Below are positions 13,581 to 43,801 of a stretch of 64,000 bases of DNA, piece by piece; the stretch's first letter is position 1; each line of letters begins with the position of its first letter. The notes below the pieces were generated by a model. It was not told the DNA's origin. It ran no database searches and saw only the letters and a list, made by a program, of their open reading frames with translations. The DNA comes from an uncultured Algibacter sp. Lineage in GTDB: Bacteria > Bacteroidota > Bacteroidia > Flavobacteriales > Flavobacteriaceae. The DNA lies in contig NZ_CANKXG010000002.1 of assembly GCF_947487575.1 (NCBI RefSeq), positions 167,179 to 231,178 on the forward strand, read 5' to 3'. Position numbers and translations under genes: made by a program.

Positions 13581-14342
13581 TTATAGTGTAATGTCTTTTG
13601 GGTATTCAATATGTGTTAAATATAAACCATGCGCCGGAACCGAAAACCCAGCCTCACTCCTATTTTTAGATTTTATAATGTCGTGCAACGCGTCCACTTC
13701 CATTTTCCCTAATCCAATATTAATTAGGGTGCCTACAATGGCGCGCACCATATTTCTTAAAAAACGATTGGCTTTAATCACAAAATGCAACTCATCATCC
13801 TTAACCAACCATTCTGCTTGCATGATATCACAATTATACGTTTTTACATCGGTATGTGTCTTAGAAAAACATTGAAAATCTTTATACTCAAATAGAATTT
13901 TCGCAGCCGCATTCATTTTCTCAACATCCAAACCGTGCTTTACATAAAAACTAGTATCAACGTTAAACACATTTTTTTCAACAGCCACGCGGTACACATA
14001 CGCTCTACTCAAGGCATGAAATCGGGCATGCACATCAGGTTTTACTTTAAAAATATCACGAATTGCAATATCGGCAGGCAAAAAAGAATTTAGTTTAAAA
14101 ATTAAATTCTGAGGTTCAAAAACAGCATCCGTATCAAAATGCGCGAACATTTGTGTAGCATGCACACCAGCATCCGTACGTCCGGCACCCATAATAGAAA
14201 TTGGCGCGCCCAAAAGTGTTGTTAAACCCGTTTCAACAACCTCTTGTACCGTTATCGCATTGGGTTGACTTTGCCAACCATGATATACGCTGCCATTATA
14301 AGAAAGCTCAATAAAATACCGCAATACCTTTGTTTTTATCAA
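13581..14342 (-). CDS. truA: tRNA pseudouridine(38-40) synthase
   Basis: GAGRTDAGVHA, RFLRNMVR, PAHGLYL motifs. Confidence 0.96.
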   Translation of the reverse strand: MIKTKVLRYFIELSYNGSVYHGWQSQPNAITVQEVVETGLTTLLGAPISIMGAGRTDAGVHATQMFAHFDTDAVFEPQNLIFKLNSFLPADIAIRDIFKVKPDVHARFHALSRAYVYRVAVEKNVFNVDTSFYVKHGLDVEKMNAAAKILFEYKDFQCFSKTHTDVKTYNCDIMQAEWLVKDDELHFVIKANRFLRNMVRAIVGTLINIGLGKMEVDALHDIIKSKNRSEAGFSVPAHGLYLTHIEYPKDITL

Positions 14343-14416: not shown

Positions 14417-14526
14417 TTTGGGCGTTACCGCACCCTTCGACTGCGCCCAGGACAGGCGGTCGGGCTTTCACTACTCACTCCTTCCTTCGTCAGGGAGTTC
14501 AAACATGCCGTTCAATCCCTAACGCG
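14417..14526. repeat. Flavo-1-like structured intergenic repeat, copy A, with nested REP (14435-14456)
   Basis: TTTGGGCGTTACC...GGTCGGGCTTT...CAATCCCTAACGCG, ends shared with 5 other copies. Confidence 0.7.
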
Positions 14527-14584
14527 GGATTATCTGCTAGCTCGTGTTTTTAAAATGTAAGTTGGTTTGTTTTTGGGAAGGTTC

Positions 14585-14716
14585 GTTTAACGTGTTTGTA
14601 TATGGTTTGTTGCGTGATTTAAGCACCTAAATTAGCAAATACAAACCGAATAGAAAATCCGCGAGGATTTTCGTAAGTAGGCTAGAACTAGCAATAAATT
14701 ATATACGGTGTTGGCA
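14585..14716 (-). mobile_element. attC-like recombination site
   Basis: Minus strand: TGCCAAC-ACCGT-ATAT...TTGC...GCAA...ATATAC-AAACAC-GTTAAAC imperfect palindrome, internal GAAAATCC/GGATTTTC stem, directly after the ORF stop. Confidence 0.75.
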
Positions 14717-15723
14717 ATAGTAGTTATTCTAACTTCTTTTTTTCCTCTTCTTCTCTTTCTTCTCTAATTTTTATCTTCATTGGATTTATTACTCTTTCAA
14801 TAAAAACTTCATTATAAATCGGCTCATAATCATAAATTACAATTCTTCGATTTGTGTCAATAAGATTAGATAATAATTTTGAAGCTAAATCCGCAACTGT
14901 TCCTGGTATTTTCCCAAAAGTCACATCGACTATTTTAGGTGTAATAGATAATGTTGTAAGAATACTTTTTTTAATATTAATTAATCCGTTATGTTTTCTG
15001 TAAAGGTTAATACTATTCTGCTGAATGTTTGACAAAGCAGTATTTTTATTAACTTCTTCTTTATCTAATTCTGAATGAGCGGTTTTATAATCTAAAAAGG
15101 GCTTTTCTTTGAAGACTTTTTCAAAACGTTTAAAATCTTCTTTACTCAAATAATGTTTTGTATTCGGTAAATCAATAGTGTCTTGACAAATTGAATTTAT
15201 TAAATATTTAATTGGATGGAAAAGTTCTAGAGGTAGGACTTCTTTTGATTTTTCTAAATCTTGAGTTATTGTACTAACTTTTCTAAATAATGATGTTCCA
15301 GTATTTGAAGCTATCATAATATCTTGAAGAAGCGTTTTAATACTCCATACTTCCTGATATTTTTCGTCTCTATGGTAATCTTCAGGAAGATAATATTGAA
15401 ATATATCTTCTATCGATTTTAGAGCGTTTTCAACTTTACTTTCCGAAATATTAGTTGCTTTTTCTTTTAAGAAATTATAGAGTCTTTTTTCGTGTTTTTC
15501 AGATACAAAATTATTGTAATCTTTCATTGAACTCGTAGCGAAAGAGTCTACGCCACATTGCATTAGATAATCAAATGTTACTGCATAAGTATTGATTTCT
15601 TCGATTTTCAGAGATTCAATAAATACGTCTTCATTAGATATCTGTTCAACAACTGACATTTGACCTAATAAATATGGACTTACATATAATTTTCTGCTAC
15701 TCATTTTCTTCTATTATTGCCAA
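14591..15723 (-). mobile_element. Integron-type gene cassette (1133 bp), solitary
   Basis: Starts TTGGCAAT, single ORF, ends ATTGCCAAC + attC; start and end boxes are complementary as in cassettes. Confidence 0.7.
14724..15704 (-). CDS. Orphan hypothetical protein (cassette gene)
   Basis: 326-aa ORF filling the cassette; no signal peptide, no family recognised. Confidence 0.75.
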   Translation of the reverse strand: MSSRKLYVSPYLLGQMSVVEQISNEDVFIESLKIEEINTYAVTFDYLMQCGVDSFATSSMKDYNNFVSEKHEKRLYNFLKEKATNISESKVENALKSIEDIFQYYLPEDYHRDEKYQEVWSIKTLLQDIMIASNTGTSLFRKVSTITQDLEKSKEVLPLELFHPIKYLINSICQDTIDLPNTKHYLSKEDFKRFEKVFKEKPFLDYKTAHSELDKEEVNKNTALSNIQQNSINLYRKHNGLINIKKSILTTLSITPKIVDVTFGKIPGTVADLASKLLSNLIDTNRRIVIYDYEPIYNEVFIERVINPMKIKIREEREEEEKKKLE

Positions 15724-15772
15724 TACAAAGATAAAGTTCCGTTTCAATGAACTTTATCGATTGTTAAACGAA
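15718..15772 (-). mobile_element. Upstream att-like site (TTCGTTTAAC, 10-bp hairpin, A|TT junction)
   Basis: GATAAAGTTC (15730-15739) / GAACTTTATC (15749-15758) perfect inverted repeat; GTTAAACGAA at 15763-15772 mirrors TTCGTTTAAC at 14582-14591. Confidence 0.55.
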
Positions 15773-15800
15773 GTTAGTTGATTTTTTTGACAAAGTCAAA
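15769..15800 (-). promoter_or_regulatory. Putative sigma-A promoter reading into the cassette (TTTG-N20-TAACTTCG); second -7 box TATCTTTG at 15726-15733
   Basis: Matches Bacteroidota -33/-7 consensus with one mismatch and 20-nt spacing. Confidence 0.5.
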
Positions 15801-15881: not shown

Positions 15882-15911
15882 AAAAAAGCTCCAGCGTTAA
15901 CTGAAGCTTTT
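15882..15911. terminator. Intrinsic terminator after the NRAMP-like gene
   Basis: AAAAAAGCT..CAG...CTG.AGCTTTT hairpin flanked by A/T runs. Confidence 0.55.
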
Positions 15912-24777: not shown

Positions 24778-24869
24778 TTTGGGCGTTACCACAAGGGTCG
24801 TGCTTTCCGTTCATAGTTTTGCCTCGATGCGCGCCTCGGCAAAAGCTAACCACTGCAATCACTAACGCG
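24778..24869. repeat. Flavo-1-like repeat, copy C
   Basis: TTTGGGCGTTACCACAAGGGTCG...CTGCAATCACTAACGCG. Confidence 0.7.
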
Positions 24870-24974
24870 GGTTAGCAACTTCAATTAAGCATTATTTATA
24901 ATTTCAAAAAAAAAAGCCTTAGCAAAAATTTATGCTAAGGCTTTAATCTATATTCTAAAAAATGTCTTTTTAAA

Positions 24975-43186: not shown

Positions 43187-43396
43187 GGAATTTAGTAGCT
43201 CATTCTGCTTATGTATTTATGCATTATTCGCATCCTACACTTTTGGAACGGATTAGGAATCTGAGGAAATAACGTTTTTTTAAGGCACACCCAGTTCCGA
43301 GTACTTTTCGGGAAAGCAATCTCAAGAATTATCTCCTGCAAAGGCGCTAAATCGTAAAGCTAATACTTGATTTTGTAAAAATTTTCATCTACCTTC

Positions 43397-43446
43397 GTTT
43401 AACGTCGGATATAAAACATTAAAACGTTGTCATATCCGCATAAGTT
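43397..43446 (+). mobile_element. Short attC-like site with overlapping promoter-like TTG-N20-TACCTTCG (43367-43397)
   Basis: GTTTAAC-GTCGG-ATAT...ATAT-CCGCATAA-GTT; same AAC-N5-ATAT / ATAT-N8-GTT spacing as the site at 14585-14716. Confidence 0.55.
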
Positions 43447-43566
43447 GGAGTGAATTCCTGCGTCATTCACTCCAACGTCCCGCGAATAAGATTTGGAGCG
43501 ACTGCCAAAAGGCACTCACACCAACAACGAATAAAATTCATTGAAACAAATCTTATTCGCGGGACG
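43445..43566 (+). mobile_element. Gene-less cassette-like unit (122 bp)
   Basis: TTGGAG...CTCCAAC complementary boxes (12-bp hairpin 43444-43476), then 22-bp perfect inverted repeat (43474-43495/43547-43568) ending G|TTAAACGAA. Confidence 0.5.
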
Positions 43567-43652
43567 TTAAACGAAACTTCAAAATTACACAAAAAAGCAT
43601 TAAACAGATTAGCACAGTCGTACCTCCTTGGCAATGACGTTGGCAGATACTT

Positions 43653-43801
43653 GCGTTAGGGATTGCAGCGGCATCCTTTTTTTAAAACACCCAAAAATTT
43701 TATTTAGAATTAGGTTTAGGCAGATTGCCACGTCGAAAACTCCTCGCAATGACGTAAAAAAAGATATAGCGTAAAGCCCGACCCTTGTGGTAACGCCCAA
43801 A
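43653..43801. repeat. Flavo-1-like repeat, copy D (inverted), with nested REP at 43722-43754
   Basis: GCGTTAGGGATTGCAGCGGCATCC...AAAGCCCGACCCTTGTGGTAACGCCCAAA. Confidence 0.75.

Follow-up and report, generated by a model that had tools for sequence, protein, structure and literature searches.

A solitary gene cassette upstream of truA and an integron-like capture system with dispersed docking sites in marine Flavobacteriaceae

How did a single gene, flanked on both sides by complementary sequences, come to stand in front of truA in a member of the Flavobacteriaceae? The question is raised by a 64,000-nt stretch of DNA from an uncultured Algibacter sp. (assembly GCF_947487575.1, contig NZ_CANKXG010000002.1, positions 167,179 to 231,178 of the forward strand), which was analysed at its full length and is called the window here. 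The contig is referred to as C2, and other contigs of the same genome are numbered likewise. Upstream of truA, the window carries one open reading frame (ORF) of 326 amino acids followed by an imperfect palindrome. Integrons are the textbook gene-capture device and are held to be defined by the IntI-specific domain of the integrase and by a single attI site beside the integrase gene, which is also the site of expression. An initial annotation had read the truA locus as a lone integron-type cassette in a promoter-bearing recombination platform. All the sequence elements it listed were found, and its coordinates are exact. Our analysis indicates that the cassette was very probably inserted by site-specific recombination into a docking site that has the form of a miniature attC site (the cassette recombination site of integrons) and carries a predicted promoter. 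The gene-capture system to which it belongs is integron-like and is common in marine Flavobacteriaceae.

The limits of the cassette were defined by comparison with a metagenome contig (L167), on which the same cassette (97% amino acid and about 95% nucleotide sequence identity) lies between two other cassettes, in the order site, cassette, site, cassette, site. The identity of about 95% extends from TTGGCAAT to ...ACG|TT and drops to background level beyond these points, where the flanks are unrelated. Accordingly, the base preceding TT is G in L167 and A in the window, and the bases 3′ of GTT are GTACTTAAT in L167 and AAACGAACC in the window. More distant homologues of the ORF were found at other junctions, namely G|TTGGCAATAATAG, A|TTAGCGATAATAG after a platform-type arm, and G|TTAGCGTGAATAGG, and each of them has a matching R″ box 3′ of the ORF. 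Since the homology ends at the TT crossovers and homologues occur at other G|TT or A|TT junctions, the unit 14591-15723 qualifies as a cassette in the integron sense. The array-borne copy and the coincidence of its homology limits with both TT crossovers thus bear out the integron insertion geometry that had been proposed for this locus. The complementarity of the cassette start with the sequence 3′ of the ORF was also confirmed, as an inverted repeat with 14 of 16 positions matching. A circular form of the cassette would consist of TT, the leader, the ORF and the attC-like site closing in G, with a predicted circle junction of ...ACAAACACG|TTGGCAATAATAG. The features of the locus are listed in Table 1; unless stated otherwise, they lie on the minus strand.

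Table 1. Features of the cassette locus and its surroundings, in window coordinates.
Feature	Position	Strand	Basis or remark
Mobile cassette, 1,133 nt, first bases TT, last base G	14591..15723	-	limits from homology to the array-borne copy on contig L167
Left junction A(15724)|TTGGCAAT; cassette start also written TTGGCAATAATAG	cassette from 15723	-	sequence
Cassette leader, 19 nt, TTGGCAATAATAGAAGAAA	15705..15723	-	starts with 9 nt that match the cassette's own R″ box in reverse complement
Cassette ORF, 326 aa, orphan protein	14724..15704	-	translated open frame; no family match
Box after the ORF, ATTGCCAAC	14718-14710	-	sequence
attC-like recombination site, 132 nt	14585..14716	-	37-61 genome copies, stem covariation, array neighbour rule
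attC-like site, 5′ parts: R″ TGCCAAC; L″ stem; inner hairpin	14716-14710; 14706-14691; 14672-14653	-	
attC-like site, 3′ parts: L′ stem; R′ GTTAAAC; crossover between G14591 and T14590	14613-14598; 14591-14585	-	
Palindrome of ~130 nt ending ...ACACG, then right junction G|TTAAACGAA	G at 14591; TTAAACGAA at 14590-14582	-	sequence
Left platform half	15724..15800	-	found by profile (E 3.7e-14) among about 37 copies
Promoter-like boxes: TTTG, 20 nt, TAACTTCG	15800-15797; 15776-15769	-	sequence
R″-type left outer box TTCGTTTAAC	15772-15763	-	sequence
Perfect 10-bp hairpin GATAAAGTTC / GAACTTTATC	15758-15749 / 15739-15730	-	sequence
Spacer TTTGT, then crossover base A	A at 15724	-	sequence
Right platform half	14526..14590	-	same sequence after solitary cassettes and at empty sites, ~20-25 loci
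Right half, parts: TTAAACGAAC, then conserved A-rich spacer CTTCCCAAAAA...TTTTAAAAA...AGCTAGCAG	14590-14581 (TTAAACGAAC)	-	
Second platform copy (C2:210545)	43367..43575	+	platform search; 122-nt gene-less insert
GC-rich repeat of the Flavo-1 kind, GCGTTAGGGATTG...GAAAGCCCGACC...GGTAACGCC	14420..14525	-	shared conserved termini
Terminator-like hairpin after the Nramp-like gene, parting the cassette from upstream transcription	15884..15911	-	12-pair stem, then TTGTTTT
truA, tRNA pseudouridine synthase, conserved downstream gene	13581..14342	-	PF01416; in 30/31 genomes

The palindrome at the end of the cassette recurs beside unrelated ORFs, as expected of a cassette site. A search with the single 130-nt sequence uncovered 37 copies in the genome, and a profile search 61. 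At least 31 of these copies, all in the same orientation and spaced by 0.5-3.4 kb, form an array on contig C6 (251283-286489) that reaches the contig end; the small contigs C22 and C24 look like more pieces of it. In an alignment of the copies, conservation opens at ...AAC and ends right after ...CGTT, and the bases outside vary from copy to copy. These outside bases follow a rule within the C6 array: the 7-nt sequence that follows GTT in one site reappears, reverse-complemented, immediately before AAC in the next. The rule holds in 25 of 30 adjacent pairs of sites as compared to 25 of 900 non-adjacent pairs, which is the signature of units that circularise and recombine at G|TT.

The sites also share a secondary structure. 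Thirty copies of one subclass were examined with a model that combines the R stem (AAC/GTT) with an L stem of 16 bp and the inner hairpin. In this set, 87.5% of the cells were paired, as compared to 24-41% when the 3′ partners were slid by 1-3 columns. Compensatory changes were found in ten pairs, and eight of the pairs in the L stem covary (0 of 500 shuffles reached the observed values). RNAalifold independently recovered the same L stem. The site corresponds to the arrangement R″(RYYYAAC)-L″...L′-R′(GTTRRRY) with an unpaired central spacer, and AAC and GTT hardly vary among the copies. The two sides of the spacer differ in length (3 nt vs 6 nt) and bulged bases are absent. At two positions of the L stem, 20/122 and 25/116, the ORF strand shows A·C in 29 and 28 of the 30 copies, respectively, so that the complement reads G·T. 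With G·T counted as a pair, the bottom strand is 96.5% paired and the top strand 83%. Such an asymmetry would be without reason in a site that works solely as a duplex. The A·C/G·T bias fits folding as single-stranded DNA, with the bottom strand (opposite the ORFs) as the strand that folds, as in integron attC sites. The inner hairpin (GAAAATCC-TCGC-GGATTTTC), present in all copies of the subclass, is followed by a T-rich run and was scored as terminator-like. Each cassette may thus end its own transcription, in which case expression from a promoter would be limited to the cassette next to it.

The sequence in front of the window cassette is likewise one of a family, with 31 distinct full-length copies in the genome. 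Solitary cassettes are preceded by a module of 76 nt, composed of TTGACTTTGT-N-TA(A/C)CTTCGTTTAAC, a short hairpin (commonly GGATATAAAAC / GATTTCATATCC), about 5 nt, and (A/G)|TT, and nearly all of them are followed by G|TTAAACGAAC-CTTCCCAAAA... The boxes GTTTAAC and GTTAAAC fit RYYYAAC and GTTRRRY, and the common form of the hairpin shares its A·C position with the cassette sites. These features make the module a miniature attC. Four copies are empty (C1:416225, C9:198515, C4:5857 and C5:36678), that on C1 being a perfect palindrome (TTCGTTTAACGTCGGATATAAAAC...GATTTTATATCCGACGTTAAACGAA). Most platforms hold one co-oriented ORF of 116-335 amino acids. In 19 occupied platforms, both junctions could be located. 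In 17 of them, the 9 nt that open the insert are found again as a reverse complement (with at most one mismatch), mostly about 118-131 nt before the right junction. The dispersed, promoter-bearing landing pad of the initial annotation thus has a counterpart in a conserved module with empty copies in the same genome. Its prediction that removal of the cassette restores a self-complementary site was also substantiated. The joined flanks form an outer stem and a hairpin (-14.9 kcal/mol, z = -6 against shuffles) and resemble the real empty copies. The empty junction at this locus is predicted to read ...TTTGTA|TTAAACGAAC, i.e. CTTTATCTTTGTA|TTAAACGAACC. One earlier suggestion, that ATT in place of GTT at the upstream crossover had locked the cassette in place, has to be given up, because most platforms have A|TT as their left junction, and so does the empty copy on C9 (...AAAACA|TTAAACGAAC).

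The platform is predicted to contain a promoter of the Bacteroidetes type. Promoters of this phylum have the consensus TTG...TAnnTTTG, and the prediction is based on the match to it and on the conservation of the boxes across about 31 copies.

The module is not confined to this genome. In a search that scored four candidates per genome, it was detected in 40 of 201 genera of the family, with identities of up to 97-100% over 72-79 nt. In two other genera (G090:C28:25971-26049 and G079:C3:65852-65923), the 79-nt module is 97-100% identical, which exceeds by far the conservation expected from coding neighbours. Such identity across genera suggests horizontal spread or a very strong constraint. 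A variant whose miniature attC has a further hairpin (CCTGTGCTGAACTTGTTTCAGTA, about 24 nt) inserted in its loop was found in two platforms of the genome (C2:309945 and C4:75752) and at the truA locus of a congener (L059:1426-1524).

The second platform in the window holds an insert without a gene, starting at G|TTGGAGTGA (G|TTGGAGTGAATTCCTGCGTCATTCACTCCAA) and ending before TTAAACGAA, with TCACTCCAA as its R″ box. The same insert start, G|TTGGAGTGAATTCCTGCGTCATTCACTCCAA, was also observed after at least four other platforms (C8:30257, C6:8351, C12:65763 and C8:65207) and after four attC sites, three in the C6 array and one on C22. This insert appears to behave as a mini-cassette that has no ORF, or as a very short attC.

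We compared the region upstream of truA in 13 congeners. Three of them have the order Nramp, Flavo-1-like repeat, truA, without the promoter-hairpin module. Two have the platform with other cargo: in one a 329-aa ORF with an attC of a different subclass, in the other a two-gene insert with an attC of the window subclass (start TTGGCAGTA, R″ box TACTGCCAA). Upstream of truA, the last eight show either a different gene or no platform. Because different cargo lies behind the same platform in congeners, the truA locus is a hot spot with exchangeable cargo.

Which enzyme moves the cassettes? No tyrosine recombinase was detected on the whole of contig C2, in agreement with the initial annotation, which had seen none nearby and had supposed that the site is served in trans. 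The genome-wide search for an IntI-like tyrosine recombinase and for further attC copies led to the C6 array and to a recombinase gene beside it. This gene (C6:249200-250378, plus strand, 393 amino acids) matched the integron-integrase model better than any other in the genome and is co-directional with the array. As the only integrase-like candidate lies on another contig, it would indeed have to act in trans. The gene is intact, with an open frame, no stops and all catalytic residues. Its product has an N-terminal extension of about 100 amino acids to which no domain was assigned, together with SAM-like and catalytic domains. The first C6 cassette begins about 35 nt after the recombinase stop codon, at ATATAACTAG|TTGTGCGTA, and an entry motif, ATATAAC(C/T)AG|TT, is found just 3′ of the recombinase gene's stop codon in five genomes (the window genome and four with orthologues).

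The linkage of recombinase and array is widespread. Homologues of the recombinase (E <= 1e-60) were found in 103 of 201 genera, roughly 45 of them full-length at 42% identity or more. In two other complete genomes, the 20 kb downstream of the orthologue (49-62% identity) contain 21 and 27 sites that belong to the same family. The linkage was also observed in Polaribacter marinivivus, Subsaximicrobium wynnwilliamsii, Winogradskyella bathintestinalis, Flavobacteriales bacterium ALC-1, Seonamhaeicola aphaedonensis and Arenibacter. A second clade of recombinases, 36-39% identical, is likewise linked to arrays. These relatives were found by an alignment-based scan; a single-sequence search for related loci returned only an unrelated actinobacterial match. 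In public annotation, the array recombinases appear as generic tyrosine recombinases. Taken together, the C6 recombinase is probably the enzyme that moves the cassettes.

These elements can be combined into a mechanism. The attC-like site would fold as single-stranded DNA on the strand opposite the ORF, forming the R stem (AAC/GTT), the spacer and the 16-bp L stem. A tyrosine recombinase, most likely the Xer-like enzyme of C6 acting in trans, would have joined the folded site with the platform in front of truA, the crossover falling between (A/G) and TT. This platform is itself a miniature attC (TTCGTTTAAC - short L-type hairpin - (A/G)|TTAAACGAA) placed immediately 3′ of a predicted Bacteroidetes-type promoter and 5′ of a Flavo-1 repeat. 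As it lies just downstream of the promoter, insertion would put a promoterless ORF behind a resident promoter. The genome has 31 platforms, mostly with one cassette, and with the C6 array a store of at least 31 cassettes. We infer the single-stranded mechanism, the identity of the enzyme, the activity of the promoter and the present-day mobility of cassettes from sequence comparison. For the complete picture, a "distributed integron" in which an Xer-like recombinase without the IntI domain shuttles cassettes between a silent store and dispersed expression slots, with the G·T/A·C positions setting the choice of strand in place of bulged bases read by an I2 helix, we consider the chances to be about even.

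Several observations weigh against the proposed mechanism. Minimum-free-energy folding of a single attC copy favours local hairpins over the long-range L stem, which is backed by covariation, not by energy. A sigma-70 consensus scan did not report the platform promoter, although Bacteroidetes promoters lie outside the consensus used in that scan. No empty platform was found at the truA locus in any of the 13 congeners; the precise empty junctions expected from the initial annotation do exist at paralogous sites in the same genome, but not at the truA locus of relatives. The C6 recombinase reached 212.8 bits on TIGR02249, in two stretches, and remained below the cut-off of 265. It lacks the IntI-specific domain (I2 helix): positions 178-240 of TIGR02249 are unmatched, and in comparison with VchIntIA (PDB 2A3V) it has 22 residues (278-300) where IntI4 has 65 (182-247), so that about 43 are missing. 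The term "IntI-type" used in the initial annotation therefore suits the apparent way of working and not the family of the enzyme. The IntI-specific segment is held to be the innovation enabling single-strand recombination (PMC4792948, PMC7790495), and in classical integrons it is held necessary for single-strand attC recombination (PMC7790495). Finally, the platform is weakly tied to the recombinase homologue, which is present in 25 of 40 platform-positive and in 78 of 161 platform-negative genomes. These numbers contradict a strict co-occurrence of platform and recombinase across the 201 genera. Given the weak association, a housekeeping Xer protein or another recombinase is possible as the enzyme, and so are relic sites.

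A different assignment of the enzyme is thus the first alternative to be considered. The anatomy would be as described, and a housekeeping XerC/XerD-type or other tyrosine recombinase would act on the folded hairpins. Elements of the CTX-phi type exploit a folded single-stranded dif-like site in this manner. The genome encodes other Xer-like recombinases (C5:68957-69778 and C7:249678-250481), platforms occur in genera without a homologue of the array recombinase at E <= 1e-60 (for example G090, G059, G067 and G077), and the R box GTTAAAC presumably resembles the XerD arm of dif. Moreover, the array recombinase scores about as well on Xer models (205 bits on XerA_Arch, 183 on XerC and 179 on XerD) as on the integron-integrase model. 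However, the array recombinases lie directly upstream of attC arrays and are co-oriented with them in many genera, the entry site is conserved, and the C6 gene is intact. In addition, the second array-linked clade explains many of the genomes that seemingly have no orthologue. We therefore regard this alternative as unlikely. A weak platform-like match (E 0.22) was found at C7:249167-249217 (minus strand), about 460 nt upstream of and divergent from the Xer-like gene at C7:249678-250481 (plus strand), possibly by coincidence.

Platform, cassette, attC and repeat might instead move together as one composite element, similar to a miniature inverted-repeat transposable element or a transposon, unrelated to recombination at G|TT. 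The three congeners that share the neighbours of the window locus without the module indicate that the module itself was gained or lost at truA, and its near identity between genera suggests horizontal spread. A composite element of this kind, however, does not account for the empty platforms, for the same platform with different cargo at truA in three genomes, or for the presence of the cassette, platform-free, in an array, where the homology stops at the TT crossovers. The match between the insert start and its own R″ box in 17 of 19 platforms would be expected only with entry and exit in circular form. We consider the composite element very improbable. We practically dismiss a third possibility, in which the palindromes take no part in recombination but are RNA elements (terminators, small RNAs or REP-like repeats) and the adjoining ORFs vary for unrelated reasons: although the inner hairpin with its T-run is terminator-like, the region adjoins a true high-copy repeat, and covariation cannot by itself separate DNA from RNA structure, the G·T positions put the stable fold antisense to every cassette ORF and not on the mRNA strand, conservation ends exactly after GTT, and neither the array neighbour rule nor the exact homology limits of the cassette are explained.

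With regard to its cargo, the 326-aa ORF matched no family in Pfam, NCBIfam, PADLOC or PHROGs; the best match, to a Cmr8 model (E 0.004 over 90 residues), was treated as noise. It has nine homologues among 5.8 billion proteins and was not found in 30 related genomes, 15 of which are congeners. An AlphaFold2 model based on a 10-sequence alignment had a pLDDT of 59. One homologue is encoded on a metagenome contig (L083:1197-2987), where it retains just the R″ box of its attC. Directly 3′ of it lies a GmrSD_N gene (type IV restriction-like), followed by a complete attC. The arrangement looks like two cassettes fused through the loss of a site, and the GmrSD-like neighbour is a hint on function, nothing more. 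The junction of this homologue resembles the array entry site (ATATAACAAG|TT). Its placement as the first cassette behind a recombinase gene was rejected, since the 165 nt upstream encode no recombinase C-terminus.

The gene upstream of the cassette matches PF01566 (Nramp). The only match of an Rfam scan (E <= 1) in the region, a Phe-leader model on the terminator of this gene, was at chance level; the attC-like site, the platform and the adjacent repeat had no match.

The repeat beside the platform belongs to a high-copy family. The A-rich spacer after TTAAACGAAC always runs into a GC-rich repeat of the Flavo-1 kind. A 13-nt pattern of the repeat start has 211 matches (at most two mismatches) in the 3.5-Mb genome, a minority of which are chance matches inside genes, and about 20-25 of the 211 have the att sequence in front. 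Flavo-1 (RF01705) is a computational motif described as a high-copy repeat (Weinberg et al. 2010, PMC2864571), and a transcriptome study found Flavo-1 matches in either orientation relative to transcripts (PMC9723704). Of the three repeats of this type in the window (14420-14525, 24792-24877 and 43648-43787), the latter two reach the Rfam gathering score of 42 for RF01705 (48.3 and 43.7 bits), and that at 43648-43787 follows directly 3′ of the second platform. The copy at 14420-14525 is of the same kind but had no Rfam Flavo-1 match at E <= 1 and stays below the gathering score. The repeat also occurs upstream of truA in relatives that have no platform, and it lies outside the cassette. Repeats of this type have variable inserts between conserved ends, and a 68-nt core variant is present in about 40 copies at about 90% identity. 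The family seems to behave as a REP-type element rather than as a small-RNA gene. The platform fronts only about 20-25 copies. It gives the Flavo-1 motif its first consistent genomic partner.

Marine Flavobacteriaceae play a major part in the breakdown of algal polysaccharide, and most of their accessory genes lack an explanation. An active system would account for many single-gene "islets" in the genomes of this group. It would also offer a natural test of whether the I2 helix is needed for single-strand recombination and a path by which integrons could have arisen from Xer recombinases. If the distributed integron is real, single-strand cassette recombination would predate the IntI domain or would have arisen without it, and gene capture and gene expression would be physically separate in this lineage.

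The closest known systems are integrons, including their SALIN/attG insertions, and the rAID-1 arrays of Bacteroidales. With integrons, the system shares promoterless single-ORF cassettes with a terminal imperfect palindrome, AAC...GTT cores, an unpaired spacer and an L stem. It also shares the G|TT crossover, a cassette start complementary to its own R″ box (25 of 30 array pairs and 17 of 19 platforms), a folding strand that would be opposite the ORFs, and a large co-oriented array adjoining a tyrosine recombinase. It differs from integrons in that the recombinase has no IntI-specific domain and falls below the curated integrase cut-off, in that the recombinase gene is co-directional with the array and has the entry site 3′ of its stop codon, and in that the sites have two fixed A·C (top) / G·T (bottom) positions instead of extrahelical bulges. 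According to IntegronFinder 2.0, Bacteroidetes have only In0 elements and one complete integron, i.e. the phylum is nearly integron-free (PMC9024848; for integron detection with IntegronFinder see also PMC4889954).

SALIN are solitary cassettes at genomic attG sites (Loot et al., bioRxiv 10.1101/2022.09.11.507474). The window locus agrees with their single-cassette type in carrying one attC copy on a contig without a detected tyrosine recombinase. Single cassettes away from an array are common to both systems, lying here behind a predicted resident promoter. In contrast to the unstructured attG, the target here is a dedicated, conserved sequence of mini-attC type with a predicted promoter, present 31 times in the genome.

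The rAID-1 arrays come from the same phylum. In the accessible text of their description, an XerD-like recombinase stands at the 5′ end of a co-directional array of small orphan genes, which are separated by repetitive intergenic sequences called integron-reminiscent by the authors (Ross et al. 2019; bioRxiv 10.1101/471110). The C6 locus has this architecture, with a recombinase gene on the plus strand followed by at least 31 co-oriented cassettes. The same text defines rAID-1 by at least 44% identity to B. fragilis BF9343_RS08045 and by immunity-gene content (bioRxiv 10.1101/471110). Relatives in metagenome-assembled genomes of Bacteroidales are 36-38% identical to the recombinase family of the window genome. 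Unlike the present system, rAID-1 is not described, in that part of the text, as having dispersed docking platforms, G|TT cassette boundaries or strand-specific folding. In the literature covered, which is incomplete, we found no description of integron-like arrays or docking sites in Flavobacteriaceae. What appears to be new here is the combination of integron-like gene capture, a recombinase without the I2 domain, and docking sites with predicted promoters distributed over the genome.

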